A DNA stretch of 62,178 bases, the filler included. It is 7 parts of 7 records of this genome, joined end to end, with 100 filler letters (N's around TTAATTAATTAA, not from the genome) between each part and the next. Parts side by side here need not be neighbours in the genome. Positions count along the whole stretch, not along the records: positions 1 to 12,448 come from SRR31156797_43096; 6 more parts are not named here. One strand, written 5' to 3'. A model generated the notes under the pieces. The model had not been told where the DNA came from. It ran no database searches and saw only the letters and a program-made list of their open reading frames with translations. The position numbers and the translations under genes are program-made. Positions 1-52,612 of the stretch are shown piece after piece. The number at the start of each line of letters is the position of its first letter. Positions within the stretch are counted from its first letter, which is position 1.

Positions 1-129
1 AAGATGGATTGCGACCTGCCGGGTACTGACTGGGTGAAGGATCATCATGCTTGCGCGCCCATATATTATGGATGGGAATCCGCCGAGCTTGGCGTGGACG
101 AATTGGCAAAAAAACTGGGCGTCGGATGA
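1..129 (+). CDS. C-terminal fragment of a probable DegT/DnrJ-type sugar aminotransferase (5' truncated)
   Basis: Frame +1 open from window start: KMDCDLPGTDWVKDHHACAPIYYGW...GVG*. Resembles the 'LPxTE...LPxY' tail of DegT proteins; sugar-operon context. Confidence 0.45.
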   Translation, partial: KMDCDLPGTDWVKDHHACAPIYYGWESAELGVDELAKKLGVG

Positions 130-237
130 AATGGCGGACATGAGACAGCCCCAAAAGCTGATCGGGCTCGTCATAAAATGGTATGGAAGCCACTTTGATG
201 GAAAAAGAAAAGTTCTTATTTAGAGGGAAATAAAGGA

Positions 238-1212
238 ATGAACGGTATTGAAAAGAATGTTCTGGTAATCGGCGGGGCGGGTTATATCGGTTCGATGCTC
301 ACAGGCATGCTGTTGAAGAATGGCTATCGGGCCACGGTGTACGACAGTCTTCTTTTTGGCGAAGAGTCGCTGTCGGGATTTGAGGATCATCCGAATTTCG
401 AGCTTATAAAGGGAGATATAAGGGATATAACAGGAGTTAATTCAGCGATCCGGGGTAAGGACGCGGTCATACTTCTGGCGGCCCTGGTCGGAGAGCCGGC
501 ATGCGACCGTGATACAAGTGAGACACTGGACATAAACTTGTTCGCGAACCTCAATATAGTTGAAACATGCCGATATTACGGCATAAATAGATTCTTGTTC
601 GCCTCAACCGATTCTTGTTACGGCATCCAGGAAGGCATTCTGTACGAGGATTCGCCTCTGAACCCGATTTCCCTATATGCTGAATTAAAATGCGAAATGG
701 AAAAAAGGATCCTGGCGGCGGCGTCCAGTGAATTTCATCCGACCATCTTGCGGTTGGCCACGGTTTACGGGCTTTCTCCACGCATGAGATTTGACCTGAT
801 CATAAATATTCTGACCATGCATGCGGTGGTTAACAACAGAATAAAGATTTTCGGAGGCAAGCAGTGGCGACCCCTGGTTCACGTGGCGGACGTGGCCCGG
901 GCTTTTGTCCATACTCTGGAAATGCCTTTGGACTCTGTCTCCAGTGAAATATTCAACATCGGGTCCAACGAACAGAACTATCAGATCGGAACACTGGGCG
1001 ACCTGGTAGTGCAGACGCTGCCCGGCATAGAAGTGGATACAATCGAGCAGCCGCCCGACCTGAGGGACTATCACGTTAATTTTGACAAAGCCGAAAATCG
1101 GATGGGATTTACATCCCAATGGTCGGTGGAAGGCGGAATTCTGGAAATTGAAAAAGCGCTCAGGACCGGGGCCATATCCGATCCGGGCAGCCAGATTTAC
1201 AGGAACGCATAA
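238..1212 (+). CDS. NAD-dependent nucleotide-sugar epimerase/dehydratase (extended SDR)
   Basis: GGAGYIG Rossmann motif, YAELK catalytic YxxxK, RPLVHVADVA; RBS AAGGA upstream. Confidence 0.9.
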   Translation: MNGIEKNVLVIGGAGYIGSMLTGMLLKNGYRATVYDSLLFGEESLSGFEDHPNFELIKGDIRDITGVNSAIRGKDAVILLAALVGEPACDRDTSETLDINLFANLNIVETCRYYGINRFLFASTDSCYGIQEGILYEDSPLNPISLYAELKCEMEKRILAAASSEFHPTILRLATVYGLSPRMRFDLIINILTMHAVVNNRIKIFGGKQWRPLVHVADVARAFVHTLEMPLDSVSSEIFNIGSNEQNYQIGTLGDLVVQTLPGIEVDTIEQPPDLRDYHVNFDKAENRMGFTSQWSVEGGILEIEKALRTGAISDPGSQIYRNA

Positions 1213-1228
1213 CTATCCGGGTATAAAA

Positions 1229-2488
1229 ATGAGCAACTTATGTCTTCAAGAACAGCCGGCTTTTGTTCAGCCTCTTGAGAGGTTTGTTTCTTTTTCCCCG
1301 CCCTTGATCGGGGAAGAGGAAATCAAGGAAGTTGTGGACACGCTGAGGTCAGGCTGGCTGACCACGGGGCCGAAAACGGAAAGGTTTGAAAACGAAATCA
1401 AGAAATATGCGGGGGCCGGCCATGGCGTGGCCGTGAATTCCTGTACTGCGGCCTTGCATTTGTCCTTGAAGGTTTTGGACATCGGGCCAGGAGATGGAGT
1501 TATAACTTCTCCTTTTACATTCGCATCCACCGGGCATGTGATCATGTATGAGCAGGCCCGCCCGTTTCTGGCGGATATAGAGCGGGACACGTTCAACATT
1601 AATCCGGATGCGGTCAGGTATTTCCTGGAAACCCGCTGCACGCCTAGAGGTCCGGAGGGGCGGCCCAGACATATTGAAACAGGCGCCATAATAAAAGCAA
1701 TAATGCCTGTCCATTACGGGGGCCATCCCTGCCGCATGGACGAACTGATGGAACTGGCCCGGGAATACAATCTTTGGATTGTTGAAGACGCGGCCCATGC
1801 CCTGGGATCGACATATAAGGGGAGAAAAATCGGTTCGATAGGGGACATAACCTGTTTTTCATTTTATGCAACCAAGAACCTGACTACGGGCGAAGGAGGC
1901 CTGGCGGCCACGGATAATAAACAACTCGCCGAGCGTATGCGGATATTGAGCATGTACGGCATTTCCGATTCAAGGCGGATATGGGACAGGTACGCACCCA
2001 AGGGCAACTGGGTTTATGACGTGGTCGAGTTGGGCTGCAAGTATAACATGATGGATATCCAGGCGTGTCTGGGTTTGCACCAACTAAAAAAACTGGACGA
2101 TTTTATCGCGCGCAGGAACGAAAACGCAGCCGTTTACGATGCGGTTTTTGATGGCCTGGAAGGGATTTCCCGGCCCGTGGTCAAGGATTATGCCGGCCAT
2201 GCCCGGCATCTTTACCCCATATTGCTGGACGGAGAAAGACTGGGCATTGACCGGGATTCGTTTATTGAAGTTTTAAAGGAAAAAAACATCGGCACAAGCG
2301 TGCTGTTCATTCCCCTGCACTTTCATTCCTTTTACAGGAATTCACTGCCCTACTCCATCGGCGATTTTCCGATAACAGAATCCGTGTTTAAGGGCGTGGT
2401 CAATCTGCCTGTTTCCCCGGCTATTTCTTCAAAAACGATTGAAAGGGTTGCGGAAACAATCGCAGCCATTGTGCGGATCTACCAATGA
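1229..2488 (+). CDS. DegT/DnrJ/EryC1/StrS PLP-dependent sugar aminotransferase
   Basis: NSCTAALHL, IVEDAAHALG, FSFYATKNLTTGEGG (PLP lysine). Start moved to in-frame ATG 1229. Confidence 0.92.
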   Translation: MSNLCLQEQPAFVQPLERFVSFSPPLIGEEEIKEVVDTLRSGWLTTGPKTERFENEIKKYAGAGHGVAVNSCTAALHLSLKVLDIGPGDGVITSPFTFASTGHVIMYEQARPFLADIERDTFNINPDAVRYFLETRCTPRGPEGRPRHIETGAIIKAIMPVHYGGHPCRMDELMELAREYNLWIVEDAAHALGSTYKGRKIGSIGDITCFSFYATKNLTTGEGGLAATDNKQLAERMRILSMYGISDSRRIWDRYAPKGNWVYDVVELGCKYNMMDIQACLGLHQLKKLDDFIARRNENAAVYDAVFDGLEGISRPVVKDYAGHARHLYPILLDGERLGIDRDSFIEVLKEKNIGTSVLFIPLHFHSFYRNSLPYSIGDFPITESVFKGVVNLPVSPAISSKTIERVAETIAAIVRIYQ

Positions 2489-3159
2489 TTCCTAATACGG
2501 ATTTCAATATTTGGGAACATTCTGAAAATGTACTCCGATTATATGCCTCAAGAGCCAGGGGCGAGCAGTCCATGGATTCGGCGGAGCAGGCGGCCGAAAT
2601 ACTGGCGCCCTTATTGACTCCGGGCATGAGCCTGCTGGATGCCGGCTGCGGGAGCGGATATTACTATTGGTCTTTTAAAAACCGGGGATTGGAGATCGAG
2701 TATTATGGAATTGATTATTCCCCCAGCCTGATCGAGATCGGCAGGCGCAATATAGGGGAATCGGGCTTGCCGCCGGAGCGGCTTAAGGTCGGGGCGATTG
2801 AAGATTTGGACGAAACCTTTGACGCGGTCATCTGTTTTAATACGCTTTCGTGGTGTCCCGATTTTCGCAGGCCCGTTGAAATGCTTTGCCGGGCCGCGAA
2901 AAATTACATCCTGATCAGGACAAACCTGGGTAAAAAGACCATGTACCGCTGGGAGGCGGACGGTTATCTGGATGAAGGCTATAATCACCTCAAGGCTTAC
3001 TGGAACATGTATTCGGAAAAGGAAGTTACGGATTTTATGTCCGAAATGGGCTTTGAAGTTGAGCCCATTGTCGACGCCAGGACCGGCGGCGTGATGGAAG
3101 AAGTCGTAGGAAAGCCATATTTTTGGAAACTGCTGCTGGGCTGGCGAAGGGAAGGTTAA
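2485..3159 (+). CDS. Class I SAM-dependent methyltransferase
   Basis: LLDAGCGSG motif I, GIDYS motif II, FDAVIC; ATGA overlap with upstream gene. Confidence 0.88.
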   Translation: MIPNTDFNIWEHSENVLRLYASRARGEQSMDSAEQAAEILAPLLTPGMSLLDAGCGSGYYYWSFKNRGLEIEYYGIDYSPSLIEIGRRNIGESGLPPERLKVGAIEDLDETFDAVICFNTLSWCPDFRRPVEMLCRAAKNYILIRTNLGKKTMYRWEADGYLDEGYNHLKAYWNMYSEKEVTDFMSEMGFEVEPIVDARTGGVMEEVVGKPYFWKLLLGWRREG

Positions 3160-4118
3160 TGGAAACCAGGGCCTTAGGATCAACCGGACTTGAAGTGTCG
3201 GTTATCGGCCTGGGGGGACATCTGTTTCCGGAAAAGCCGGTGGATTATTACCCAGGTTTTTACGGCCGCCGTTTTTTGGAAGGCGAGTTTTATGGAAAAA
3301 GGCTCGGGATTATAGAAGAGGCTCTTCGCGGCGGAGTCAATCTTTTTGCGGCTGATTTTGAATATGAATGCCGCGCCTTGGGCCGGGCTCTCAAGGAGAC
3401 CGGGGCGCGGGACAGGGTGCTTTTATCCGCGGTGGTTGAATTCAGACCGGAGCCGGGTTCCCCTATAAAATGGGGCGAACTTGAAAAAGAGATAGACAGG
3501 CTCCTTGCTCTTTTGAATACCGACAGGATCGACCTGCCCCAGATAAGAACGGCTGACTGGCACGTGGAAGAAAATATTCTGGCGGATATGGCAGGCCTGC
3601 TGGCCGGACTGGCGGAAAAAGGCAAGATCGGGGTCCCGGCGTTTTACAGTTCTGACAATGATGTGAATGTTTTAATTACGGGTTTGAGACAAGGCCTTTT
3701 TAAAGTGGTTTTACGGGCCATGGGGCTGCTTAACCCGACTGCATATTTAAAGGTGTTACCCGAAGTTGTAAGGGCGGACGCAGGGTTCATCGGTTTTGTG
3801 CCTTTTCAGAAAGGGAGGCTTTTCGACTGCGGGTTTGAAGCTGGATTAAACGCCGATTCAATAGCCGGGGCCGGGATTAGCTGGGTGATGAACCAGGAGG
3901 GCTTATCCGGATTAATGTGCGGCGCATCGAACCCGGAAGAAGTGGCCATGAATATCGATCGCGTCAACAACCCGCTGCCGGAGATGGAATTAAAGAATAT
4001 TCTGGCCGGCATCATTGAAACAAATGCGTATGACGCACATATTAGCGAGTTGCAAAAGGAGGCCGGTCATTTGGTTCTGGATTGGAGAAAGTCCGATCCG
4101 GAAGGTCCGGGCTGTTGA
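3159..4118 (+). CDS. Aldo/keto reductase-fold protein (catalytic residues apparently degenerate)
   Basis: METRALGSTGLEVSVIGLGG N-terminus, LNTDRIDL, GKIG, GASNPEEV; TAATG overlap with upstream stop. Confidence 0.75.
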   Translation: METRALGSTGLEVSVIGLGGHLFPEKPVDYYPGFYGRRFLEGEFYGKRLGIIEEALRGGVNLFAADFEYECRALGRALKETGARDRVLLSAVVEFRPEPGSPIKWGELEKEIDRLLALLNTDRIDLPQIRTADWHVEENILADMAGLLAGLAEKGKIGVPAFYSSDNDVNVLITGLRQGLFKVVLRAMGLLNPTAYLKVLPEVVRADAGFIGFVPFQKGRLFDCGFEAGLNADSIAGAGISWVMNQEGLSGLMCGASNPEEVAMNIDRVNNPLPEMELKNILAGIIETNAYDAHISELQKEAGHLVLDWRKSDPEGPGC

Positions 4119-5104
4119 GTCAAATGCTGCATTATCGACATGGAGAACAGAGTGACCCTTTCCTTTATATTTATTCCGATCCCGGATGGCTCAGGGATTA
4201 CGACCCGGTTCGGGAATTTCCGTTTTGGGTGAATATAGAATCCACGAACCTGTGCAATTTGGATTGCATATTTTGCACCCGCCAGCTTTGCCGGGGATCC
4301 CGGGGATGCATGCCCGACAGTGTGCTGGACAGGATTATTGAGGAAGTTGCCGCCTATCCGGGTGCGGCCATACGAATAGCGGGCTGGGGGGAGCCGCTCA
4401 TGCATCCTGAATTTACCGAACATGTAAAGAGAATAAAACATTCCGGGATTCCCCTAAAGATATATACAAATGGAACGCTTTTGAATGACGAAATGATGGA
4501 AGCGTTCGTGGAAGCCGGGGTGGACGAGATTCAGTTCAGCATGCAGGGTTTGAATCCGACCCAGTATGAATTCAACCGCCGAAAATCAAATTATGACCTG
4601 TTCAGATCCAAGGTGGAAATAGCAGGCGGGGTGCGTGAGAGGACGGGGAGCGGGAAGCCTTTTTTGAGTCTTCTTACTTCAGCTCTTTTAAGCGAATTGA
4701 ACGAGGCGTCGCCAAAAGCCTTTATTAATGAATGGTCGCCCCTGGTGGACAAGGCGGCCGTGGACTTGACCAATCTAAATTTTGTCAGGGAATGCGAGCG
4801 GATTAAGCATTTGCTGGACGACCAGGCTTTGAGCATGGCGCACAGGCCTTGCGTGGACGTATTTCTGGCCATTGAAGTTAATTACGACGGGGCGATTCAA
4901 TTTTGCGGACAGGATGCCTGCCGGACCCCTGAGCATACCATAGGGAACATACAGGACATGACCATTTATGAAGCCTGGCATAGTGAAAAGATGGAAAAGC
5001 ACAGGCAGGCGGTGGGGCGTGAAATCCGGCATGATGAAATGATCATCTGCCGCAACTGTTACCACAACACGAATAAATATGACCTTTTCAAGGAAAAATA
5101 TTAA
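4115..5104 (+). CDS. Radical SAM enzyme with C-terminal SPASM/Twitch domain
   Basis: CNLDCIFC (CxxxCxxC), GWGEPLMHP, YTNGTLL; C-terminal PC...FC...IGNI...CRNC. Start TTG 4115 or ATG 4124. Confidence 0.9.
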   Translation: MSQMLHYRHGEQSDPFLYIYSDPGWLRDYDPVREFPFWVNIESTNLCNLDCIFCTRQLCRGSRGCMPDSVLDRIIEEVAAYPGAAIRIAGWGEPLMHPEFTEHVKRIKHSGIPLKIYTNGTLLNDEMMEAFVEAGVDEIQFSMQGLNPTQYEFNRRKSNYDLFRSKVEIAGGVRERTGSGKPFLSLLTSALLSELNEASPKAFINEWSPLVDKAAVDLTNLNFVRECERIKHLLDDQALSMAHRPCVDVFLAIEVNYDGAIQFCGQDACRTPEHTIGNIQDMTIYEAWHSEKMEKHRQAVGREIRHDEMIICRNCYHNTNKYDLFKEKY

Positions 5105-6041
5105 CGGCCTTTTAAATTTGGCCAAAGCTCATTCGGCCTGGCCTCTACAGCCGGGAAAGGCGGAGGCGCCGGGCGATGAGGCCCGTGAACTGGTCCGTGA
5201 CCTGGAAAGTCATTTTGAGCGCAAAGACGCCTGCGTAATAACTACCGGGGGAGCGGATTATTCCAATGCGGCCGGTTGGGCAAGGCTTTTGGAATGGGAT
5301 ACTGAATTTTTCGGATATCCCTGCGCCAGGATAGAAGGATTGATGGCAGCCGGCGACAATGAAACAAGACGAAGGTCAGCCGGGGAAGTTGTTCAAGGAA
5401 TTCTTGACTGGTGTGTGAAAAAGGAAGTTCGTTTCATAAACGTCAAGGTTCCGGGGCCGGACCCGGCTATTGTCCAGGCCTTGATGGAAAAAGGATTTTA
5501 TTTCGCGGACAGCATCATGGAGCTGGACCGGGGTAATGATGCCCCGATTCCTCAACCGGTCGTTCCCAAGGAATTAACGATACATTCCAATGCCAGGGAT
5601 ATTGAACTTGCGGCCGGCAAATTTTCTTCATTGTTTTATGACGGCAGGTTCCACAACGATCCGCACATTTCAAAAAAAAAGGCGGACAGTTTATGGGAAG
5701 CGGCATTAAGAAGCCAATTGCAAGAGCGAGCAAGACATTTCTTTTTTCTGGGAAATGAAAAGGAAGATATTGGATTGGCAACCTTCCAAACCATTGACGG
5801 CCTGAAAGGGAAAGATAACGGACTTATAGGCAGCCTGTTTTTTTTCGGCATTTTAAGGGAATTCCAGGGCCGGGGCTTGGGCCGGGCGCTGTTGGCCGAA
5901 AGTCTAAGCAAGGTAGAGGCTGATTACAAACGGATCAAGGTTGAGACTTCAACCTACAATTTTCCGGCCCTAAGACTTTATCAGGCCTTTGGGTTTAAAC
6001 CCGGGCGGGTGAAGATGAGCATGCATTTGAGGTTTGATTGA
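5079..6041 (+). CDS. GNAT acetyltransferase, WecD/RffC-like (amino-sugar N-acyltransferase)
   Basis: LEWDTEFFG, GRFHNDP, FQGRGLGRAL acetyl-CoA loop, NFPALRLYQAFGF. Confidence 0.85.
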   Translation: MTFSRKNINGLLNLAKAHSAWPLQPGKAEAPGDEARELVRDLESHFERKDACVITTGGADYSNAAGWARLLEWDTEFFGYPCARIEGLMAAGDNETRRRSAGEVVQGILDWCVKKEVRFINVKVPGPDPAIVQALMEKGFYFADSIMELDRGNDAPIPQPVVPKELTIHSNARDIELAAGKFSSLFYDGRFHNDPHISKKKADSLWEAALRSQLQERARHFFFLGNEKEDIGLATFQTIDGLKGKDNGLIGSLFFFGILREFQGRGLGRALLAESLSKVEADYKRIKVETSTYNFPALRLYQAFGFKPGRVKMSMHLRFD

Positions 6042-6047
6042 CAAGAA

Positions 6048-7076
6048 ATGGATATGAACAGGGATTTAAAAACTCATTTTGAAATCGGCGGAATTCGGGT
6101 CGGGCCCGGCGAACCAGCCTTGGTTGTGGCCGAAATCGGCGGCAATCACGGGGGCGACGTCGACCTGGCTTTAAAGATGATAGACGCGGCATTGGATGCC
6201 GGTTGCATGGCGGTCAAATTCCAGGCGTACAAGACCGGTTCTTTTCTGGCCGGGACCAGCGAATATTTTGATGAACTGGCGGCTGAAGAACTTGGTTTTG
6301 AAGAGATGGCCAGGCTGGCGGATTACTGCGACCGAAAAGGAATGCTATTTCTGGCTTCCGTGTTTGATTTTGAAAGTCTTATTTTGATGGTGCGGTCGGG
6401 AGCGCCGGCCATTAAGATTTCTTCCGGGGATTTAAACAATTTTCCATTGCTTGAAGCTGCGGCCGGAACCTGCAAACCGATTATACTTTCGACAGGGGCG
6501 TCCAATCAGGAAGAAGTTGCGCGCAGCCTGGATTTTTTACATCAATCCGGGGCTGAGGATGTGCTCCTGCTCCAGTGCACATCCATGTATCCCTGCCCGG
6601 ATGACGAGGTCAACCTGTCCGTAATACCATTCTGGCAATCCCAAACAACAGCTCCGATTGGATTTTCAGACCATTCGATCGGCGTGACCATACCCATCGG
6701 GGCCATGGCTCTGGGGGCCTGCCTGGTGGAAAAACATTTCACTATCGACCAGGGGCTTCCGGGCGGAGATAACGAGATATCCTGCCTGCCCCATGAACTG
6801 GCTCAATTGGTCGAAGCTTCAAGTCGCTTATATAAGGCCATGGGCGGTGCGGAAAAAGAGCCAACCAGGGGAGAATTAAACCTTCGAACGGCCATCCGTC
6901 GTTCCGTGGTTGCCATAAAGGATATAAAAGCCGGGGAAAAGTTCGGCCTGCACAACCTGGGTTTTAAAAGGCCCGGGGATTATGCCGAACCGGTTGAGTA
7001 TTATCACCTGGCCGGGAAAGAGGCAAAAAGGGATGTGGCCGAGGGCCGGCCTGTAACCAGGGAGGCGGTGGAGTGA
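6048..7076 (+). CDS. neuB: Nonulosonic acid synthase (NeuB/PseI/LegI family) with SAF domain
   Basis: VAEIGGNHGGD, AVKFQ, KISSGDLNN, ILSTG, QCTSMYP, GFSDHS, EKHFT, RRSVVA...KRPG. Confidence 0.92.
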   Translation: MDMNRDLKTHFEIGGIRVGPGEPALVVAEIGGNHGGDVDLALKMIDAALDAGCMAVKFQAYKTGSFLAGTSEYFDELAAEELGFEEMARLADYCDRKGMLFLASVFDFESLILMVRSGAPAIKISSGDLNNFPLLEAAAGTCKPIILSTGASNQEEVARSLDFLHQSGAEDVLLLQCTSMYPCPDDEVNLSVIPFWQSQTTAPIGFSDHSIGVTIPIGAMALGACLVEKHFTIDQGLPGGDNEISCLPHELAQLVEASSRLYKAMGGAEKEPTRGELNLRTAIRRSVVAIKDIKAGEKFGLHNLGFKRPGDYAEPVEYYHLAGKEAKRDVAEGRPVTREAVE

Positions 7077-7867
7077 CTTTTCAGGTGTGCCTGCCCATAT
7101 CGGACCTGATTACGGCTGATATTGCATCGACCAAGGCATTACTGGATGCCGCCGATGTGCTGGAGCTTAGAAAGCCTGTATTGCCGGCGGATTTGCCTGA
7201 CAAAACCATGATTTATCACTGGAGCCTGGGAACCGTTCAGGAAGGCTTTATTGAAACATTTGAAAAAGAAAACCTGGGTGAGTTTTTATCCGGCCATAAT
7301 ATTGAAATGTTCAGTTTTGACATGGGGCCGGCCTGCAGGAAGAACGATTATGTTCTGCCTATGTCTCGAACCTTGAAACCTGAAGAGATTATGGAAATTT
7401 CTTCCAGGTCCCTGGAACATGTGCGAGGGCGATACCAGGGTCGTTTGGCAGTGGAAAATTACAATTATTATCCGACGGGGCTGTACGAACATATCTGCCG
7501 TCCTGATTTTATGGCGGAGTTTTTGTTCAGATTTGATCTTGGACTGGTGCTTGACCTGGCTCACGCCTGGATAAGCGCGGCAAACCTGGGCCTGGATGTA
7601 AAGGAGTATTTAATGGAATTGCCGCTGGATAAAGTGGTTGAAGTCCATGTAACCAGGCCTCTTTTTTTAGACCGTCTGGCGGTTGACGCCCATTTGGCGC
7701 CGGGAGACGAAGATTTTGAACTGCTTGTTTTTTTGTTGAAGCGCCTGCCGAACGGCAGCAGGCCGACGCCGGTTGAAATAGAGTACTATAAGGATTTGGA
7801 AGGTCTTGAGGCCGGATACAAAAGGCTTGGGAATATATTGGATGAAATCAACAATGAACGGAAATAA
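7073..7867 (+). CDS. DUF692 family multinuclear non-heme iron oxidative enzyme (MNIO)-like protein
   Basis: Ordered motifs IYHWSLG, LAVEN, LVLDLAHAWISAANLG, LPLDKVVEVHV, VDAH, VEIEY match the DUF692 TIM-barrel ligand pattern; GTGA overlap with neuB. Confidence 0.75.
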   Translation: MTFQVCLPISDLITADIASTKALLDAADVLELRKPVLPADLPDKTMIYHWSLGTVQEGFIETFEKENLGEFLSGHNIEMFSFDMGPACRKNDYVLPMSRTLKPEEIMEISSRSLEHVRGRYQGRLAVENYNYYPTGLYEHICRPDFMAEFLFRFDLGLVLDLAHAWISAANLGLDVKEYLMELPLDKVVEVHVTRPLFLDRLAVDAHLAPGDEDFELLVFLLKRLPNGSRPTPVEIEYYKDLEGLEAGYKRLGNILDEINNERK

Positions 7868-8909
7868 AAGCGTAAAAGTAAATCCGCGGCCCGAAAGAAT
7901 GAATGCGGAAGAAAAGCTGAGCAGGAAAAACGCTTTTGACGGCAGCCTGGTCATGGGCGCGGAAAATTTTAACCGGGCCACGGGCCGGGATCGTCATTTT
8001 AATGACGGGCTGGATTCGTTGATAGATGAAAGAACAAACCTGATTAAAAGCCGGTATACCAAGGATCGCTTCTGTCCTGTTTGCGGCTGCCAAAACCCGG
8101 AATTGTTATTTGTCAAAAGGGGATTTCAGCATGTGCGTTGCCCGGAATGCGCGCTTATTTACGTGAATCCCGTTTTGATGGATGAAGCGGTATTGGAGCA
8201 TTACACCAATGAGACATCCTGGGTCCAGGTTTTGGAAAGCGGTCCACAGGTACAACTTGATAGCCTGAAGTATGAATACGGCCTGGATACTGTTGCACCG
8301 TATTTAACCGGAAACAACCTGCTGGACGTGGGAACGGGCACGGGACTTTTCTTAAAGGTCGCCGCCGGGCGGGGCATGGATCCAACAGGATTGGAGTTGA
8401 ACGGACATAACGTATCCCGTTTACGGCAGGATGGCTTTGATATTGTTGATCAACCCCTGGAACAGGCTGATTTTGGCGTTAGAAAATTTGACATGGTTAC
8501 GTTTTGGGAAGTGTTGGAGCATCTGGTCGAGCCAGGATCGCCGCTTGAGCAGGCCGGCCGTGTTTTGAAGCATGACGGTTTGCTGCTTATACTGGTTCCA
8601 AACGCGGATTCCCTGGCCACAAGGATATTGCATGAAAAAAGCGGGACATTCGGCGGGCACTCACATGTTAATCATTTCAATATAAACAACCTGACCCGTC
8701 TGCTGGATAAATGCGGGTTTGAGATGATGGAAGCCGAGACCATTATTACCGAATTGGGAGCGATTAATAATTATCTGAATTTTGAAGATCCGTATTTCGG
8801 CCGGGCGCCTGCTCAACTTGATTTGCTGAGTCCCGGATTCATCCATGAAAACATGCTGGGCAGCAAGTTGTTAATTTTGGCCAGACACAAGAATAAAGGG
8901 AGCAGATGA
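7854..8909 (+). CDS. SAM-dependent methyltransferase with N-terminal zinc ribbon
   Basis: CPVC...CPEC ribbon, LLDVGTGTG, FWEVLEHL, VPN. Start ATG 7854 or 7899. Confidence 0.85.
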   Translation: MNGNKSVKVNPRPERMNAEEKLSRKNAFDGSLVMGAENFNRATGRDRHFNDGLDSLIDERTNLIKSRYTKDRFCPVCGCQNPELLFVKRGFQHVRCPECALIYVNPVLMDEAVLEHYTNETSWVQVLESGPQVQLDSLKYEYGLDTVAPYLTGNNLLDVGTGTGLFLKVAAGRGMDPTGLELNGHNVSRLRQDGFDIVDQPLEQADFGVRKFDMVTFWEVLEHLVEPGSPLEQAGRVLKHDGLLLILVPNADSLATRILHEKSGTFGGHSHVNHFNINNLTRLLDKCGFEMMEAETIITELGAINNYLNFEDPYFGRAPAQLDLLSPGFIHENMLGSKLLILARHKNKGSR

Positions 8910-8910
8910 A

Positions 8911-9594
8911 ATGATCCTGGGTATAATACCGGCCCGCGGCGGCAGCAAGGGCATTCCAAGAAAGAATATTAAATTGATCAACGGGCGTCCGTTGATTGCC
9001 TGGTCCATATTTGCCGCAAGGGAATCAAAACTATTGGACAGGTTTGTGGTGTCCACGGAAGACGACGAGATCGCGGCGGTCGCGGAGCAATACGGGGCCG
9101 AAGTGCTAGAGCGGCCTGCTGCGTTAGCCGGAGATGCATCCAGCAGCCGTGATGTAATTCAACACGCCCTGGAAGCGCTTGACGCCGATGTATCCGTGCT
9201 CCTGCAGCCTACTTCGCCGGTAAGGGACCACGATCTGATCGACCGGGCGATAAAGGCGTTTATTGACGGCGGTTATGATTCAATGGCCACGGGATATATG
9301 AATCCGGTTTATCCGCCTCATGGTGAAGAGCACCGAAGACAGGATATAAGCGAAGTGTTCGTCAATGACGGAAGCATTGTAATATCTACAAGGGATACTA
9401 TAAAGGCCAGGAATCTTTTTGGGAAAAAACGGGGAATAATGGTCACTGACAAGGAACAGAATGTGGACATTGATGATGAATTTGATTTTTGGCTGGCAGA
9501 GCAGGTGCTGATTAAGCGGTTTGGGGATGGGGTTTTGATTTTACCGGAAGAAAGGGATGTGCGTTTGCTGCGTTCCGCGGCCGGGGGAAATTAA
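8911..9594 (+). CDS. neuA: Acylneuraminate cytidylyltransferase (CMP-nonulosonate synthetase)
   Basis: IIPARGGSKGIPRKNI, VVSTED, LLQPTSPVR, VDIDDEFDF. Confidence 0.93.
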   Translation: MILGIIPARGGSKGIPRKNIKLINGRPLIAWSIFAARESKLLDRFVVSTEDDEIAAVAEQYGAEVLERPAALAGDASSSRDVIQHALEALDADVSVLLQPTSPVRDHDLIDRAIKAFIDGGYDSMATGYMNPVYPPHGEEHRRQDISEVFVNDGSIVISTRDTIKARNLFGKKRGIMVTDKEQNVDIDDEFDFWLAEQVLIKRFGDGVLILPEERDVRLLRSAAGGN

Positions 9595-9655
9595 GAGTTT
9601 TCACCACAGAGAGCACAGAGAAGAGAACATAACTATAAACAAGAGTAATTGTAGC

Positions 9656-9683
9656 GGCGCCCACTAAGGGCGCCTTTTCTTTT
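9656..9683 (+). terminator. Rho-independent terminator ending the glycan operon
   Basis: GGCGCCC-ACTAA-GGGCGCC followed by TTTTCTTTT. Confidence 0.8.
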
Positions 9684-9872
9684 GCATGGCCATGGGATGA
9701 TTTCATGTCGCCGTTTCGAGTAGGTTCAGGTCGGCGGATAATGGAAAAATCACACTGATGATGTACAATTCAGAATAATGGCTCCAACTCGGGCGGCCTT
9801 TTGAAAGATTATGTTTTGAAAGGCGGAAAATCGTCCGGGCCTGGTTACAAGGAGAAAAAGACGGAGAAGAAT

Positions 9873-10247
9873 ATGTCATTGTCCATATGCTTGATTGATG
9901 ATTCCAAGGTGGTTCGATCAGTGGTAAGACGCCTGCTGAAAAGCCTGATCAAGGATCGGGATTTGAATTTTTCGGAAGCTAACTGCGGGACCGCCGGATT
10001 GGAATTGCTGCGCAACAATCCATTTGACCTCGCCTTTCTTGATCTGACCATGCCGGATATGACCGGTTATGAAGTATTGGAAGCGTTGCAATCGGAAAAC
10101 GTTCCGGGGAAGATTTTTGTTTTAACCGCGGATATCCAGCCGGAATCGGAAAAGAGAGTTCGAGGGCTCGGCGCAACCGGTTACCTGACCAAGCCCTTGA
10201 AGGATGTTGATTTGAGAGCTGCGTTAAAGGAGAACGGCATCCTATGA
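9873..10247 (+). CDS. Single-domain response regulator (CheY-like)
   Basis: LIDDS, FLDLTMPDMTG, LTAD, YLTKP; start moved to ATG 9873 after GGAG. Confidence 0.9.
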   Translation: MSLSICLIDDSKVVRSVVRRLLKSLIKDRDLNFSEANCGTAGLELLRNNPFDLAFLDLTMPDMTGYEVLEALQSENVPGKIFVLTADIQPESEKRVRGLGATGYLTKPLKDVDLRAALKENGIL

Positions 10248-10891
10248 CCGCCATAATTTTTACAGAAGACGAATACGATCAGCTCAAGGAAATATTCAAC
10301 GTGGCCATGGGGCGCGCCGGATCCGACCTGGCTGTTTTGTTGAAATCGTTTGTGGATCTGTCAGTGCCCGACCTGGAAATAGTCACGGCTGAAAAAATCG
10401 CTGAAACCATATTGGTTAAAAGCGTATTCAAGGAAGAAGAACCAATCGTCGCCTTTCGGCAGAGTTTTGACGGCGGCGCGTTACTGGCCGGCGAAGCCAT
10501 GGTTTTTTTCGACATGGACACCAAAAACCGCGTAGCATCCATTTTGGGGCTGCCGTCGCAAATGGAATCAGTGGAAGAAATTGCGTTCATGTTTGATATG
10601 TGCAATCTCCTGGTAGGCGCCTGCCTGAACAGCGTCTCCGATCAATTGTTTCAACAAACCGCTTCATTTTCCCAGCCGGAAATGATCGCTGAAAACCGCA
10701 TGCTGAAGAAAATGGTATATGAAACTTTCATGAGGACCAATTTGAAATGGGACTACACTCTATTGGTGAAAATTTCCTTTCAGCTTAAAGAAAAAATGCT
10801 TAAAAGCGAGCTTATGATGTTTTTGGCCGAACCGGTCATCAGTTCGGTAAAGAAAGCTGTTTCGGAAATGCTGGTAGAGGATGAGGAATGA
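10244..10891 (+). CDS. CheC-like phosphatase
   Basis: LKEIFNVAMGRA (ExxN motif), V-x-LSVP, second motif DMCNLLVGACL. Confidence 0.8.
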   Translation: MTAIIFTEDEYDQLKEIFNVAMGRAGSDLAVLLKSFVDLSVPDLEIVTAEKIAETILVKSVFKEEEPIVAFRQSFDGGALLAGEAMVFFDMDTKNRVASILGLPSQMESVEEIAFMFDMCNLLVGACLNSVSDQLFQQTASFSQPEMIAENRMLKKMVYETFMRTNLKWDYTLLVKISFQLKEKMLKSELMMFLAEPVISSVKKAVSEMLVEDEE

Positions 10892-11865
10892 GCTTTTCAA
10901 ACATTGAAATCCTTGACAGCATAATCAATGGAGTGGAATTGGGAGTAGTTGTCCTGGATTCCGGGAAAAACGTTACTTACTGGAATCAATTCATGACCAG
11001 GCACAGCGGAATAAAACCGGATGAAATTATTGGCAGGAACATCTTTGAAGTCTTTAATTATATTCCCCGGCCATGGCTGGAACTGAAGATAGACAGCGTC
11101 AGGCTGATACGGAATTTTTCATTTTTATCATGGAAACAAAAGCCGCACCTTTTTAAATTTCACCACAATCGGCCGATCACCGGAGACGCTTTGGAATATA
11201 TGTACCAGGATTGCACTTTACTGCCCGTCAAATCTGAGGAGTCTTCCGAAATTCATGTATGCATTACCATTCAGGATGTGACAGACCTGGCCCTGGCCCG
11301 GAAAAAAATGGAAGAAGTGGTAGAATTAAATAAAAAATTGGAAGAATTGACCAATTTTGACGGATTGACCGCGGTTTACAATCGCCGATATGTTGAACAG
11401 CAGATAGAACAGGAATTCAATAAGGCCAAGCAGAATGGAAACGTGTTTTCCATTGTTTTGATCGATATCGACCATTTCAAAAAGGTGAATGACTTATACG
11501 GGCATTTGGCCGGGGATGAGGTTTTAAAAGAATTTGCAAAAATAATAAAGAGCAATCTGAGGGCTTCGGATGTTTTCGGCCGTTACGGGGGAGAGGAATT
11601 TTTCGCTTTGCTGCCGGATACAAATGAAGAAGAAGCCGCGAAACTGGGATTGAGCTTGAAAAACGCCGTGGAAGACGCTGTAGTGGAAACCCGGGGAAAA
11701 AAGATAAAAGTAACTTTTTCCGGGGGTGTGGTTCAATACCGGGAGGATGAAACAGACTACGTGCAAATGATACATGAAGCTGACCAGGCCCTGTATCATT
11801 CCAAGGAAAGCGGGCGCAACCGGATATCAAAATTTGGTACAGGCGGTTGTTGTGTAGAGTATTAG
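10888..11865 (+). CDS. PAS-domain diguanylate cyclase
   Basis: N-terminal PAS (YWNQFM..HSG), DGLTAVYNRR, IDIDHFKKVNDLYGH, RASD I-site, GGEEF. Confidence 0.92.
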   Translation: MSFSNIEILDSIINGVELGVVVLDSGKNVTYWNQFMTRHSGIKPDEIIGRNIFEVFNYIPRPWLELKIDSVRLIRNFSFLSWKQKPHLFKFHHNRPITGDALEYMYQDCTLLPVKSEESSEIHVCITIQDVTDLALARKKMEEVVELNKKLEELTNFDGLTAVYNRRYVEQQIEQEFNKAKQNGNVFSIVLIDIDHFKKVNDLYGHLAGDEVLKEFAKIIKSNLRASDVFGRYGGEEFFALLPDTNEEEAAKLGLSLKNAVEDAVVETRGKKIKVTFSGGVVQYREDETDYVQMIHEADQALYHSKESGRNRISKFGTGGCCVEY

Positions 11866-11911
11866 CCGGAAATTACACTATTCAAAAAGCGGCTCTGACT
11901 TCCTTCAGCTA

Positions 11912-12301
11912 TTAGTTCATTTGCAGCTTTTTCATGTTGACGCCCAAAAAACCAACCTTTATACCCGCGTTTTTTAATCTTTTGGTTGCCTTGTTCGACA
12001 GAAGCATCACGACAATTATATTGACCAATGGCACAAACATTAATACAGCAACGAGAATAGGAGATTGTCCCAGCGCCGCAGCCAGTTTGTAAGTTAGAAA
12101 AATGAAAACCAGTGCAAAGACAATATATATTATCGTGTTTCCAACCAGCAAGTAAACTGGCGGCCTGGATGATGAGATTATAATGGGCACGAGAATCATC
12201 AGGGACAGAAAATAAACCAGGAGATAAACCAAAAGTAATATTATAATTCTTTTTTGGCCTTCCGCCACGGCCATAAGATTTGACTTTTCCGTGCTTTCCA
12301 T
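11912..12301 (-). CDS. Hypothetical membrane protein (about 3 TM segments)
   Basis: Hydrophobic 129-aa ORF with strong RBS AGGAGG; ends LKNAGIKVGFLG. Confidence 0.7.
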   Translation of the reverse strand: MESTEKSNLMAVAEGQKRIIILLLVYLLVYFLSLMILVPIIISSSRPPVYLLVGNTIIYIVFALVFIFLTYKLAAALGQSPILVAVLMFVPLVNIIVVMLLSNKATKRLKNAGIKVGFLGVNMKKLQMN

Positions 12302-12448
12302 GGATTCCTCCTTTTGTTTTTCTTCAGGATAAGCATAAATAGAATGCGAGCCGCGCCAAACGATTCAAGGCCCATAAGGAGCCATGTGTTTTGCGAGTCC
12401 CCCACCGGGGATGTCCCCGGTAATTTTGTAAAGGACAAATGATGGCAA

Positions 12449-12548
12449 NNNNNNNNNNNNNNNNNNNNNNNNNNNNNNNNNNNNNNNNNNNNTTAATTAA
12501 TTAANNNNNNNNNNNNNNNNNNNNNNNNNNNNNNNNNNNNNNNNNNNN
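12449..12548. other. Artificial contig spacer
   Basis: 44 N + TTAATTAATTAA + 44 N. Confidence 0.99.
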
Positions 12549-12938
12549 GCCGGTCAGATCTGCTTCTCTCAGGTCCGCCCATCGCAGGTCCGCGCCTTCC
12601 AGATCGGCGTACGCAAAGCATGCCTGTTGAGCGTTCACTCCTTCCAGATTGGCGTTTTTCAATCTGGAGTTCGACATGTCAGCCCCCGTCAGGTCGCAGT
12701 CTTTCAACACGGCCCCTCTGAGATCCGCTTCCCTGGCCCGGACTCGGCGCAATACAGCTGTATTCAGGTTTGCGTTTCTCAGGTCGCAATCCGTCAGGTC
12801 TGTCTGAAAAAGGACGGCTCCCCACAGGTTCGTTCCCGCCGCCCTCGCCAATCGAAGTGAAGCGCCGGACAGGTCGGCGCCTAGTAAATTTACTCCAAGC
12901 AGGTTTAACGCATCCAGACGGCATCCGGAAAAATCCAG
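12549..12938 (-). repeat. Pentapeptide repeat (right-handed beta-helix) coding region
   Basis: GADLSGASLRLA...ADLRGAVLKDCDLTGADMSNSRLKNANLEG...ADLEGADLRWADLREADLTG; runs into the contig end. Confidence 0.9.
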
Positions 12939-15263
12939 GTAACACAGGCAATCCGGGACCGGCCGGCTTCCGGATTTGAAATGCTGTTTTTGCAGCGTGC
13001 GAATCCAGTCTCCGGCGCTGGTTTCTGTAGGCCAGGCGATACTGCTTCGTGTATCCGTAATTGTTGCACAGGCCGCATGCAGTATGAAAAGAGCTGTTTC
13101 AGCGTTCCATGCCCAAAGCGTCATTTCCCGGAACTGCATGGGTCTTATGGTGCGATGTAGAGGAAGCCCGTTAAGCGCCGCACGTTCCATGAAGCGAGCC
13201 AGCATATCTCGCCAGTCTGATACCTCCTCGCGGTCCTCCATGCGGATCTGTCCCGTCAGTAGCCTTGACAGGTCCATGTGAATAGGGGCCGGACCGAAAA
13301 ATTCAGTCCATCGAAGCAGGGCGGTTTCAACGATCAAGCCTCCTGAGCCGGATTCCCTTCGCCGGTCCAGTTCGGATTTCAGCGTTCTCAGTTCGTCGAT
13401 TATTTTCCTTACAACAAGCAGTTCACGGAAACTGTCATGCGAGAACCTGATCGCGGCCGGCCGTCCCCGGTCGTCGCGCTTCAATTTAAACAGCCCTAAA
13501 ACGCCCATATCAACCTGTTCCATCATGGCTTCCAGTTGAGAGACCAGGCCAAGCCTGTCAAACCTTGCACGCAGGTCAACCATGCCGATTTCAGGCTGCC
13601 GCAAGCGCCAGCACATAACGGCTATTTCTTCCAGAATCGTCATAAAGGATTTTCGGTCCAGGGGATACAGCCAGCGGTATGGTCTGCGATCGTCATAGGT
13701 CCGGTCGTAAATTGTTTCAAAAAACGATTCTGTTATCAATCTGAAGCTGTTTGAATCCTCCCAACCGCATTGCCCTCTTCGGACGGCCAAAACCGACAGG
13801 TACTGCATCATAGGAGACGCTGCTGCGACCTGGAATTCACGGGAAGCGCCGTCAAATGCGTTGCGGATTTCGGAAGCGGGAAATCCCGTGGCGTCCTCGA
13901 ATTTATTCCACCAGGCGATCCTTTGATCTTCAACGAGGAGGCCGTCCGGATCGTCATACTTATGGCGTTCTTCCTCGGGGATGTACAGGGGCAGAAGCTC
14001 ATAAGTCAACGTTTCCGGCGGCAGCATATCGGCCAGGTCTTCGACGAAAACAGGCCACGCTGTCGCCAGGGCCGCCGCTCGACGCCCGTCCCGGTTCCAT
14101 TTGTCAAGAAATCCAAGCAAGGATTTCAGAAAACCGCGGCTTCTTTCCATGTAAAAAGGGGCCGTCATTCTCAGATCGTTCAAATGGCTGAATATCAAAA
14201 GCAGCGGTTTTTCCGAGGGCGCCTCGTTCATCGGACTTTCGTTGAATAGATCTTTTTCCCGAATAAACGAGTAGATTGCGTCATCCAGGTCATCCACGAA
14301 TTCGAAATCGGATACAGGAATAAAAAGGACTCGACTCCCGGTTTTTTCCAGGAAACGTCGGGTCAGGTTAAGGCCGAACGTCAAAACCCCGCTCCCCGGC
14401 GCCCCGGTCAGGAACCGCAGCGCATCATCTTTATTTCCTGATTCATACCAATTTATCAGTTCGGTTTCCGGGTCGACGACCTTTTTTCGACTCTTTGGGG
14501 ATGCAGCCTCAAGTTCGTTGAATTCATTCAAAATTCCGGATTGAGCCAGGCGGCCGGCCCGGAGCGGAACATACATCTGATCCAGGTTGAACGTTTCGAC
14601 TCCGTACACGGGCCGGGCCATACGGAAATGAGCTTCATAGCGGCGGGAAAGCCAGGAACGTTCAAGGCTCGGGCCGGCGGTAAACGGTGTAGACCACGCA
14701 TCGGACAATGGCGCATATACAGCGGGATTCGAACGTATTTCGCAATCCATGAACCAGGTAAAATAATCCGGCAGCCTTTTGACTATTGTCTCCGGTTTTA
14801 ACGGCTTGTAATCATGCCGAAGCAGCCAGTCCACAAAGACGCTGCTTATATTACTTATTATCGTCATTGTCTCCGGCTTGAGAAAAGACTCGGAGTTCAA
14901 CTCGAAGACCATATCGTCAAGCGGCGATGTCAGGTCTTCCAGTAATTCATCCAGGGATTCAGGATCGCATCTTTCCAGCAGTTGCTCGATCTCGCGCAGG
15001 ATTTCGCACAGCGATCGCGTAAGCCCTCTCCAGACCAGAACGAAGGCCAGGCTGTCAGGGTCGCGGTCCGCCTTTATCGGAGATATTGCGTCCATGGCTT
15101 CCCGGACTCGATCATCCCATTCGCGCGTGGAACGGCTTGTCAGTATCAGGGATAATGATTTGAAAAGAAAAACAGGAGACAGGCCGAAAGGCTCCAACCT
15201 CTCTTTCAGACTGAGATCCGCTGAATATGTGTGCTCTTCCGTCATCAAGAAGCCCTTTCCCAT
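12549..15263 (-). CDS. NACHT/STAND-like protein with C-terminal pentapeptide repeats (3' truncated)
   Basis: LDQMYVPLR pre-NACHT motif, FLTGAPGSGVLT (Walker A-like), LLLIFSHLNDL (Walker B-like), FSHDSFRELL, then A(D/N)Lxx repeats. Confidence 0.8.
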
Positions 15264-18050: not shown

Positions 18051-18150
18051 NNNNNNNNNNNNNNNNNNNNNNNNNNNNNNNNNNNNNNNNNNNNTTAATT
18101 AATTAANNNNNNNNNNNNNNNNNNNNNNNNNNNNNNNNNNNNNNNNNNNN
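18051..18150. other. Artificial contig spacer
   Basis: N-run with TTAATTAATTAA. Confidence 0.99.
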
Positions 18151-23732: not shown

Positions 23733-23804
23733 CGGGCCCATGCGGATCTTCCGCAATCGGCTTGTAGGCATTTTACAATCAAATTACCCTGAAAGGAGAA
23801 TTAG

Positions 23805-35018: not shown

Positions 35019-35836
35019 TTCTCCTGAATCTGATAAAAACCAAATACATCCTGCTTTCCGTTTTCGCAACCCAGATGCATGGCGGCCTGCTGCTGCATGA
35101 TGTCGCCACCCCAGTCGTCGTGGTTGTAGGTATTCGGGTTTTGAAACCAGTTTTCCACGTTCATGCGGATTTCAAAATCGAGGATGTCGCCTTCTGTAAC
35201 TGTAAATGATGAATTGGGCAGATTCACCTCGAAATTATTATGTATAAACCCGGTAATGGAGTCTACATGTATAACCCCTCCGGCATATGTCTGCCCTATG
35301 CCAAGGTGGAAATCGAAGGGTTTTATAACGCCGTCATCAGCCAGCCACTTGCCATTGAGTTTCATGTAATGGTAGCCGCCGCCCAGAAATTCCGGCCAGA
35401 ACATATCCCGCTCCGGCGGATTCAGGAACATTAGTGATTGGTTTTTTGCTTCGGATATACCAAAAGTAAAACTCACCTTATCAACTGTTCCGGTTTTGAT
35501 ATCATCAAAAACCTGCCAGGTGTGGGTTTCGGGCAGGTCGGTGTCCACATAATGAATGTCTTTCCAACCATCGAGCAGTTGAGTGGTCCCATCGTCATAA
35601 TGCAGGGTCACATGCGAAACAAAATACTGGATTTCGTTTACCAGGTAATGGTTGCCCGCGGCATTTACATATTGCATGGTGTCGAACTGCTGCGGAACCC
35701 CATCATTGTATTGCGTAAAATGGAAATTAATTTTAGCCGGTAAATAAGGTGCCGGATCATTTCCGCTGCAGGAAGTAAAAAGCAGCGCAACAATACCAAA
35801 AGCAATTAGTGTGTGTGATTTTAATTTATTCAACAT
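35015..35836 (-). CDS. mbnP: MbnP-family copper-binding lipoprotein
   Basis: Lipobox FTSC, YVNAAGN..YFVS, MFWP..GGGYHYMKLNG, FHLG; directly upstream of the MbnH-like gene. Confidence 0.75.
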   Translation of the reverse strand: MLNKLKSHTLIAFGIVALLFTSCSGNDPAPYLPAKINFHFTQYNDGVPQQFDTMQYVNAAGNHYLVNEIQYFVSHVTLHYDDGTTQLLDGWKDIHYVDTDLPETHTWQVFDDIKTGTVDKVSFTFGISEAKNQSLMFLNPPERDMFWPEFLGGGYHYMKLNGKWLADDGVIKPFDFHLGIGQTYAGGVIHVDSITGFIHNNFEVNLPNSSFTVTEGDILDFEIRMNVENWFQNPNTYNHDDWGGDIMQQQAAMHLGCENGKQDVFGFYQIQEK

Positions 35837-42840: not shown

Positions 42841-42856
42841 GCCACCCACCTTTTCA

Positions 42857-48244: not shown

Positions 48245-48251
48245 CTGAATT

Positions 48252-52559: not shown

Positions 52560-52612
52560 ATATTGATAAAATTTATTACGATAAAATTCAAGTTAATCAG
52601 GTTATTTAATTA

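Follow-up and report, generated by a model that had tools for sequence, protein, structure and literature searches.

The subject of this work is a gene with a domain of the DUF692 family, found in a stretch of DNA of 62,178 nt (the window), which is made of seven records joined with spacers of 100 N; positions 1-12,448 come from the record SRR31156797_43096. The gene is the open reading frame (ORF) 7073-7867 of the + strand, it codes for 264 amino acids (aa) and it lies in an operon for the synthesis of nonulosonic acids (NulO). To judge from sequence and gene context, it may encode a non-oxidative metal hydrolase which would free the hexose required by the synthase NeuB; we give this interpretation a probability of about one half. 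The gene has a fixed place in operons which do not have the usual releasing enzyme, so that it probably performs the missing step. The family, also known as multinuclear non-haem iron-dependent oxidases (MNIO), includes MbnB, TglH, ChrH, ApyH, HvfB and BufB; the protein of the window is a distant member of it.

The operon is formed by ten closely spaced genes on the + strand, listed in Table 1, among which the DUF692 gene is number 8. Its GTG start (7073-7075) lies on the TGA stop of neuB (7074-7076), so that both genes share four bases. It is followed by a methyltransferase gene (MT2) and then by neuA. The preliminary description of this DNA had noticed both the overlap with neuB and the position two genes ahead of neuA; the order of the ORFs agrees with it. 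In the pathways of pseudaminic and legionaminic acid, which have a DegT aminotransferase and an N-acetyltransferase, the intermediate sugars are linked to a nucleotide, and the hexose must be freed ahead of NeuB. NeuC, LegG and PseG are the enzymes which carry out this step.

We will start with the relatives of this protein. A word-indexed search gave 133 of them, about 90 with an identity of 36-92%; those which have a name are labelled DUF692 or UPF0276. A profile search of 1.84 billion representatives gave 268 clusters (at 50% identity) with E <= 1e-30 and 750 with E <= 1e-10. The hosts of this clade are metagenome-assembled genomes (MAGs) similar to Desulfobacterota, Scalindua, Nitrospirae, marine metagenomes and an archaeon. 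We have probed 37 genome loci by tblastn with the proteins of the window operon. The gene neuB is found directly upstream in 31 loci, while three others begin at a contig edge; in locus L035 neuB is 3 kb downstream, and loci L002 and L032 have none. Downstream we find neuA in 27 of the 37 loci, with an identity of 56-78%, and MT2 comes after the DUF692 gene in 25. The linkage with neuB and neuA, seen before in a single contig, is therefore a feature of most related loci. In one class, represented by 95 genomes which overlap partly with the 37 loci, the gene is present in 39 genomes and has neuB directly upstream in 34. Pfam annotation of 93 ORFs in nine loci gave only sugar-pathway and housekeeping neighbours. 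Some clusters are minimal: they have the order neuB-DUF692-neuA, with no dehydratase, aminotransferase or short-chain dehydrogenase/reductase (SDR) close by. In L032 and L035 the DUF692 gene is found beside a DegT or an SDR dehydratase gene.

A second subclade has an identity of 24-31% and shares the motifs ENxNYYPT, DLAHA and IEYYK. We have traced it in metagenomes, where it is found in 80 marine loci. Among the 37 loci with at least 5 kb, neuB is present in 36 and DegT is found upstream in 34. The usual order is DegT, DUF692, SDR, a short NeuB, a GNAT or formyltransferase, a class III aminotransferase and NeuA. In six of the seven annotated marine loci, the six which have both DegT and SDR, the DUF692 gene lies between them. 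The NeuB of this subclade has 266-280 aa in loci L042, L045, L061, L082, L085 and L113, and Pfam detects no SAF domain in these six proteins at E <= 1e-8.

A NeuB tree was built from a quick search, with frames checked by tblastn and with SH-aLRT support only. A branch with SH-aLRT 98 sets sixteen gene-linked NeuBs apart from the other sequences, and seven marine ones form one clade (97). The NeuB of the window sits inside a clade of DUF692-linked NeuBs. The two DUF692-linked groups are not joined to each other, and both are apart from most NeuBs of the class which are linked to NeuC or PseG. The NeuB of genome G050, from which locus L002 comes, clusters weakly with the PseG-linked ones.

Neither NeuC (PF02350) nor PseG (PF04101, TIGR03590) was found in the 15 ORFs of the region 1-15.3 kb or in the 34 other window ORFs with at least 150 aa. 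A tblastn search of the whole window with one NeuC, one PseG and one WecB gave no match either. These results agree with the preliminary description, in which no nucleotide-releasing hydrolase of this kind had been visible. The same enzymes are absent from the 93 ORFs of the nine genome loci and from 63 ORFs of seven marine loci, and they do not appear among 14 unassigned neighbours at E <= 0.1. We have also searched 119 loci and the window by tblastn with NeuC and PseG queries from genomes of the same class; in this set, where many metagenome loci are short, matches were found only in L090 and in L125, which comes from another part of the L002 genome.

The distribution in the 95 genomes of the class, many of which are incomplete MAGs, is complementary. 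We find neuB in 72 of them, NeuC above the cut-off in 24 and PseG above the cut-off in 10. Among the 72 genomes with neuB, half have the DUF692 gene: NeuC or PseG above the cut-off is found in 4/36 genomes with the gene, as compared with 22/36 without it. Neither enzyme passes the cut-off in 32/36 and 14/36 respectively (Fisher p = 1.7e-5, ignoring relatedness). In the four genomes where both overlap (G008, G035, G086 and G087), NeuC or PseG lies at most about 1.5 kb from another neuB paralogue, in a contig other than that of the DUF692 gene. In the complete genome G001 there is a single good neuB, and the sole Epimerase_2 protein is a WecB (411 bits; the NeuC model gives 91 with a cut-off of 236). 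We found no NeuC, PseG, NanE or AGE-type GlcNAc 2-epimerase in this complete genome, and its four DegT genes are located elsewhere.

Gene fusions are also present in this clade. Ten of the 150 best representatives are clearly longer than the clade norm of about 260 aa, and a Pfam scan of these ten gave six DUF692-GNAT proteins, one of which bears the name of an archaeon, two NeuB-DUF692 proteins, one DUF692-methyltransferase (P0162) and one protein with no second domain. The contigs of L018 and L033 carry the NeuB-DUF692 fusions, each of which is called as a single gene by two annotation sources. In the loci themselves neuB and DUF692 form one open frame, at 2182-3984 of L018 (609-620 aa) and at 8378-10846 of L033 (820-822 aa). 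The GNAT of one fusion (P0220) aligns over about 250 residues with the WecD-like GNAT of the window (E 1e-8), and with the GNAT of L082 (E 4e-26). The fused domain is therefore the same WecD-like acetyltransferase which the clusters encode separately. The DUF692 protein is thus fused with the enzyme which precedes hexose release, the GNAT, and with the one which follows it, NeuB. We looked for a parallel fusion of PseG with GNAT, but the long PseG frames of G071 and G048 have no GNAT; their extra region has no confident Pfam family, and in one of them there is a weak nucleotidyltransferase-like match (E 1.6e-4).

The only Pfam family found in the window protein at E <= 0.01 is PF05114 (MbnB_TglH_ChrH), with E 4.4e-14 and 52.8 bits, above the gathering score of 25; the match is partial and covers residues 94-225. 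The assignment to this family, made earlier from motifs, is therefore upheld. A best match with the AP endonuclease/xylose isomerase family, which the preliminary description had considered as the outcome against it, did not appear: PF01261 (AP_endonuc_2) does not match the window protein at E <= 0.01, and it gives weak matches in some clade members. The scores with the NCBIfam MNIO equivalogs are far short of the cut-offs: 63.4 bits for ApyH (cut-off 400), 45.3 for HvfB (360), 44.9 for BufB (310) and 18.1 for ChrH (600), so that the protein falls outside these characterised subfamilies. The NeuC and PseG models TIGR03568 and TIGR03590 are not among its NCBIfam matches, and we see no homology with these enzymes.

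The closest solved relative by sequence is TglH (chain 8HCI_D), with E 1e-5, which becomes 2.8e-12 with the clade profile. AlphaFold, run with 25 relatives, predicts a barrel of eight strands (pLDDT 95.3, pTM 0.93). In Foldseek the top ranks are TglH and MbnB, with TM 0.70-0.72. Re-ranking with VIA-align gives MbnB Z 20.8 (root-mean-square deviation 3.1, 241 residues), TglH 20.0 and 3BWW 20.0, with a range of 19.1-20.8 for the matches with these three proteins; the solved MNIO members have 14-22% identity with the window protein. The next folds are barrels similar to xylose isomerase: a putative isomerase (Z 18.1) and the endonucleases IV of Mycobacterium tuberculosis (17.7) and of E. coli (17.0). 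Ketose 3-epimerases have Z about 17 and YcjR 16.2. The ranking by fold and by sequence places the window protein in the MNIO lineage, as a distant member. It is not a typical MNIO.

The metal-site residues were surveyed in 114 aligned relatives. Glu128, Asp161, His164, His192, Asp205, His207 and Glu237 are invariant in all of them, and His49 is found in 113. The motifs noted before (H49, E128-N129, D161xxH164, H192, D205xH207 and E237, with FSFD at 80-83) are all in place. Position 11, which presumably corresponds to MbnB His54, is occupied by His in 92 of these relatives; the two N-terminal His were mapped from the aligned clade members and from the strands on which they lie, not from a superposition. 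In PMC9060507 the MbnB ligands are given as His54, His90 and Glu133 for Fe1; Glu133, Asp163, His192 and Glu239 for Fe2; Asn166, Asp208 and His210 for Fe3, and Asn166 is termed 'highly conserved'. In profile alignments Asn is also found at this position in TglH, in 3BWW and in an MbnB. In the whole clade (114/114) it is replaced by His164, which gives a D-x-x-H motif as in endonuclease IV. Of the nine MbnB positions, the window protein keeps seven, and most relatives keep eight.

The comparison with endonuclease IV is based on the E. coli protein Nfo (MG1655 gene), with residues H69, H109, E145, D179, H182, H216, D229, H231 and E261, which we take to be its nine zinc ligands. Of these, His69, His109, His216 and Asp229 are named as such in the literature. 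For the class II apurinic/apyrimidinic (AP) endonuclease of African swine fever virus, the published description gives the D-x-x-H residues Asp179 and His182 as Zn ligands, aligned with those of E. coli Nfo and other endonucleases IV. Nfo and the window protein share the D-x-x-H-A and D-x-H motifs and also E-N, and the spacings of 13 and 30 in Nfo are identical to those from H192 to D205 and from H207 to E237. With the presumed mapping, both proteins would follow the pattern H, H, E, D-x-x-H, H, D-x-H, E, except that the window protein has Asp in the first position. Endonuclease IV enzymes are described as phosphodiesterases and 3'-phosphatases. They have the same TIM-barrel superfold; on the other hand they have no significant sequence relation with the window protein, and its context is a sugar pathway instead of DNA repair.

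These features suggest the following mechanism. The protein would be a metal-dependent TIM-barrel hydrolase of MNIO/DUF692 descent, with a metal site similar to that of endonuclease IV, and it would take the NeuC/LegG or PseG step in NulO biosynthesis. Its substrate would be a 2,4-diacylamido-2,4,6-trideoxyhexose linked to a nucleoside diphosphate (NDP), and in the minimal clusters UDP-N-acetylmannosamine or UDP-N-acetylglucosamine (UDP-ManNAc/UDP-GlcNAc). Phosphoester hydrolysis at a site with two or three metals would split the sugar from the nucleotide. It could be followed by C2 epimerisation of the released open-chain aldose, a reaction which this superfold carries out readily. The free hexose would then pass to the co-translated NeuB synthase. 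The preliminary description had proposed an MNIO branch acting on a sugar, or a hydrolase which fills the NeuC/PseG step; such a function has independent support from the neuB linkage kept in two divergent subclades, from clusters (and mostly genomes) which have neither NeuC nor PseG, from the fusions and from the endonuclease-IV-type set of putative ligands.

Independence from O2 would fit with the hosts, since Adiutrix, Desulfarculales and Scalindua are anaerobes; it would also fit with the radical S-adenosylmethionine (SAM) genes of the operons and with the absence of an HvfB-type MNIO, whose model matches none of the 95 class genomes at E <= 1e-15. The clade is similar to other MNIOs in its PF05114 match, in its closest solved folds and in the Glu, Asp, His, Asp-x-His and Glu ligand positions. 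It differs from them by the change of the Fe3 Asn to His, by a variable first His, by scores below all NCBIfam cut-offs, by a sugar operon where we found neither a precursor peptide nor a partner with DUF2063 or a RiPP recognition element (RRE; RiPPs are ribosomally synthesised and post-translationally modified peptides), and by its many anaerobic hosts, whereas the characterised MNIOs are known to use O2. For MbnBC an oxygen dependence has been shown.

The likeness to NeuC, LegG and PseG would be one of function only, as suggested by context, by the complementary distribution in clusters and genomes and by the fusions. The order neuB-X-neuA mirrors neuB-neuC-neuA. The proteins are not homologous: NeuC, LegG and PseG have GT-B-type folds, while the window protein is a TIM barrel with a predicted metal site. 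The chemistry should also differ, a metal-activated phosphoester cleavage versus elimination/addition or glycosidic hydrolysis in NeuC and PseG. A wider proposal, which we hold a little more tentatively, is that a branch of the MNIO/DUF692 family has kept or regained a trinuclear site similar to that of endonuclease IV. It would then be a third solution, so far unrecognised, for freeing the hexose, beside NeuC/LegG and PseG, and the first member of the family working on a sugar nucleotide, with no O2 and no peptide, in anaerobic Desulfobacterota-like and anammox bacteria, in marine plankton and in archaea.

Several observations weigh against a hexose-releasing hydrolase. Among solved structures the nearest are MbnB and TglH, two enzymes which oxidise peptides and which come ahead of endonuclease IV, and we know of no nucleotide-sugar hydrolase with such a fold. 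The window protein has Asp instead of His at position 11. Profile comparison with Nfo by hhalign falls short of significance (probability 0.3, E 0.21, 35 columns, restricted to the D-x-x-H segment), so that the likeness is one of residue pattern and not a demonstrated homology beyond the shared superfold. Locus L090 carries a NeuC gene on the same strand, 7 kb upstream, where its neighbours are a second neuA and a PtmE-like nucleotidyltransferase. In G050, the genome of L002, a PseG-like gene (100.7 bits for a cut-off of 153.55) adjoins the sole neuB; it is 29 kb from the DUF692 gene, whose cluster has no neuB of its own. Since the genomes with the gene are close relatives, the Fisher test overstates their independence. 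Furthermore, 14 of the 36 neuB genomes which have no DUF692 gene also have neither NeuC nor PseG above the cut-off, so that the absence is partly due to incomplete MAGs or to divergent genes. Some of the fusions could be read-throughs of gene calling. Finally, the place of the marine gene between DegT and SDR fits an epimerase equally well.

This last point leads to the alternative of a sugar epimerase or isomerase, the usual kind of enzyme in the superfamily of xylose-isomerase-like TIM barrels, which would invert a centre next to a carbonyl through a metal-bound enediolate, with no nucleotide cleavage; we consider it unlikely, though worth keeping in mind. The centre could be C3 or C5 of an NDP-4-keto-6-deoxyhexose before DegT, C2 of a free aldose, or a centre of an oxidised NulO. 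Ketose 3-epimerases, L-xylulose-5-P 3-epimerase and YcjR act on sugars and have a similar fold (Z 16-18 over about 230 residues), and the reaction needs no O2. The gene adjoins an oxidoreductase in the marine subclade and DegT or an SDR dehydratase in L032 and L035, and there is an aldo/keto reductase in the window operon. However, such an enzyme leaves the release step with no enzyme in the clusters, in 32 of the 36 genomes and in the complete genome G001, and the minimal clusters have no dehydratase, aminotransferase or SDR nearby. Ketose 3-epimerases and YcjR have one metal with four ligands, and the mononuclear ketose 3-epimerases are not known to need the full set of nine positions which is kept here; there is no significant sequence match either. 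Fusions with NeuB and with an acetyltransferase are less expected for an enzyme working ahead of DegT.

The protein might also be a true MNIO oxidase with a sugar as substrate. It would introduce an O2-dependent, iron-catalysed modification (hydroxylation, C-C or C-N) in a NulO or its precursor. The best matches in sequence and fold are indeed MNIOs, with seven or eight of the nine MbnB ligand positions kept. The marine subclade comes from ocean metagenomes which, from the contig names, are probably oxic, and one locus has a PhyH dioxygenase. Against these features stand the strict anaerobes found among many of the hosts, the radical SAM genes of the same operon and the change of the Fe3 Asn to His throughout the relatives. 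A decoration of the sugar also leaves the absence of NeuC and PseG unexplained, and we consider this possibility improbable.

Animal Neu5Ac and Bacteroides KDN are made from a hexose-6-phosphate which gives a NulO-9-phosphate. A phosphatase of such an intermediate, for example of a NulO-9-phosphate produced by a NeuB which uses hexose-6-phosphate, would agree with the endonuclease-IV-like ligands and the 3'-phosphatase activity of that family, with the position of the gene between neuB and neuA in the minimal clusters and with the NeuB-DUF692 fusions. It is quite improbable: clusters with DegT and a WecD-like GNAT use NDP-sugars and not 6-phosphates, G001 has no NanE to provide ManNAc-6-P, and the GNAT fusion is left unexplained.

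We have also looked for peptides which could be modified by this protein. DUF2063 is absent from the 15 and 34 window ORFs and from the annotated genome and marine loci, and no precursor was found in the ORF scans of the window and related loci; here again the preliminary description, which saw neither precursor nor partner, is borne out. The 218 small ORFs which flank the gene in the 37 loci do not form any family present in more than three loci; the families seen in a few loci overlap the gene ends or run antisense, so that a conserved precursor upstream did not turn up. In the window there is an ORF of 36 aa with four Cys, which starts with MCVCC (9557-9667, + strand) and runs over the 3' end of neuA. 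The 37 related loci have nothing equivalent (best E 0.057, non-syntenic), and the ORF is therefore probably a chance one. An ordinary RiPP maturase with precursor and partner genes located elsewhere is thus hardly credible, in spite of its membership of PF05114, of the four-Cys ORF and of the fact that a partner is not universal (MovX needs none, according to a table in PMC12452194), given the missing DUF2063 and small-ORF family, the sugar-pathway neighbourhood in two subclades and several phyla, and NCBIfam MNIO scores of 18-63 bits for cut-offs of 310-600.

Table 1. Genes of the NulO operon, with their positions in the window
Feature	Position	Strand	Evidence
NAD-dependent sugar epimerase/dehydratase (SDR); probable NDP-hexose dehydratase or epimerase	238..1212	+	PF01370, E 4.3e-43
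DegT/PseC/LegC-type NDP-4-keto-sugar aminotransferase	1082..2488	+	PF01041, E 1.7e-118
Class I SAM methyltransferase (MT1)	2485..3159	+	Methyltransf_11, _31 and _25
Divergent aldo/keto reductase	3123..4118	+	PF00248, E 1.5e-11; kept in L002, L003, L005
Radical SAM/SPASM enzyme (oxygen-sensitive chemistry)	4082..5104	+	PF04055 and PF13186
WecD-like two-domain GNAT; probable N-acetyltransferase of NDP-4-amino sugar (step 'H')	5079..6041	+	PF00583, residues 210-306
NeuB-family nonulosonic acid synthase, SAF domain (step 'I')	6048..7076	+	PF03102, E 3.7e-66, and PF08666
DUF692/MNIO-fold TIM barrel, NulO-linked clade; proposed hexose-releasing metal hydrolase	7073..7867	+	PF05114
Methyltransferase (MT2), N-terminal ~160 aa of no assigned family	7806..8909	+	Methyltransf_23, E 1.8e-22, residues 167-308
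NeuA/PseF-type CMP-nonulosonate cytidylyltransferase (step 'F')	8911..9594	+	PF02348, E 5.8e-26

The other genes of the operon can be assigned to families, and many of their scores with specific models are low. The SDR has weak matches with GalE and LegB, far under their cut-offs. DegT gives 337 bits with PseC and 264 with LegC, NeuB gives 298 with NeuB_NnaB and 228 with PseI, and NeuA gives 127 with PseF, all of them under the cut-off. The real start of DegT is probably downstream of the TTG at 1082, since the PF01041 match starts at residue 76; MT2 probably starts near or past 7867. The GNAT also matches PRK10975 (WecD) in residues 70-306. MT1 has copies in L002, L003 and L005 with 58-71% identity, and the radical SAM/SPASM enzyme has copies in L001, L002, L003 and L005 with 60-74%. 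Three of these loci, which hold the most closely related clusters, have in addition three or four tandem radical SAM/SPASM paralogues after neuA (L002 12501-16844, L003 13573-16896 and L005 14722-18909), which are not found in the window, and two asparagine-synthase-like amidotransferases are inserted in their clusters.

The rest of the window has variable features. A second glycan cluster is found at 45858-54805 (+), with four GT4-type glycosyltransferases, one of type GT2 and a gene similar to asparagine synthase. The product of the first operon, CMP-NulO, may be used by this cluster. A gene of the MbnP family (35015-35836, -) adjoins a di-haem MauG/MbnH-like peroxidase (33747-35069, -). Such a pair of MbnP with an MbnH-type peroxidase occurs in methanobactin operons; here it looks unrelated to the DUF692 gene, which is 26 kb away and on the other strand, and there is no MbnB. 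In the regions 29832-33392 (-) and 58862-61056 (-) there are three proteins, with a type IX secretion C-terminal sorting domain, TraM and the DUF4138 of conjugative transposons, domains which we take to be found mainly in Bacteroidota. The GC content of this Bacteroidota-like part is 35-42%; the NulO operon, which is most closely related to MAGs labelled Desulfobacterota or Pseudomonadota, has about 50%. The stretch may be a mosaic due to gene transfer, or possibly it is chimeric. An MttB-family methyltransferase adjoins a BCCT transporter (22302-25478, +), and a tandem-BMC shell protein is found with an RnfC/Nuo51-like flavoprotein (42289-44206, -); these genes may point to a metabolism of quaternary amines inside a microcompartment. 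We have also found a VgrG-like baseplate hub (Phage_GPD, Phage_base_V) with C-terminal collagen triple-helix repeats (15717-18098, +) and a protein of 920 aa with a NACHT N-terminal helical domain and C-terminal pentapeptide repeats (12501-15263, -).

We found no article which links DUF692 to nonulosonic or sialic sugars, or which pairs nonulosonic acids with xylose isomerase, in a literature search whose coverage left out about 1.7 million PMC articles; co-mentions of MNIO and sialic were unrelated. The main text of an MNIO survey of 2025 (PMC12452194) does not contain the terms sialic, NeuB, sugar or polysaccharide, and its supplements may list such neighbourhoods. In a survey of NulO synthases (PMC8208679), the terms NeuC, PseG, LegG and hydrolase do not occur.

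In the literature examined all MNIOs modify ribosomal peptides, so that genome mining takes PF05114 as a marker of RiPPs. If the gene has the function proposed here, the presence of a large clade (at least 268 clusters) devoted to sugar metabolism would change the value of PF05114 as a marker and would remove false RiPP calls. The change of Asn to His at a single metal ligand would be a simple and testable marker of the changed chemistry. Many genomes with neuB have no recognisable NeuC, LegG or PseG, and pathway predictions consequently label them as incomplete. For glycobiology, the hydrolase proposed here would fill this gap in the NulO pathways.

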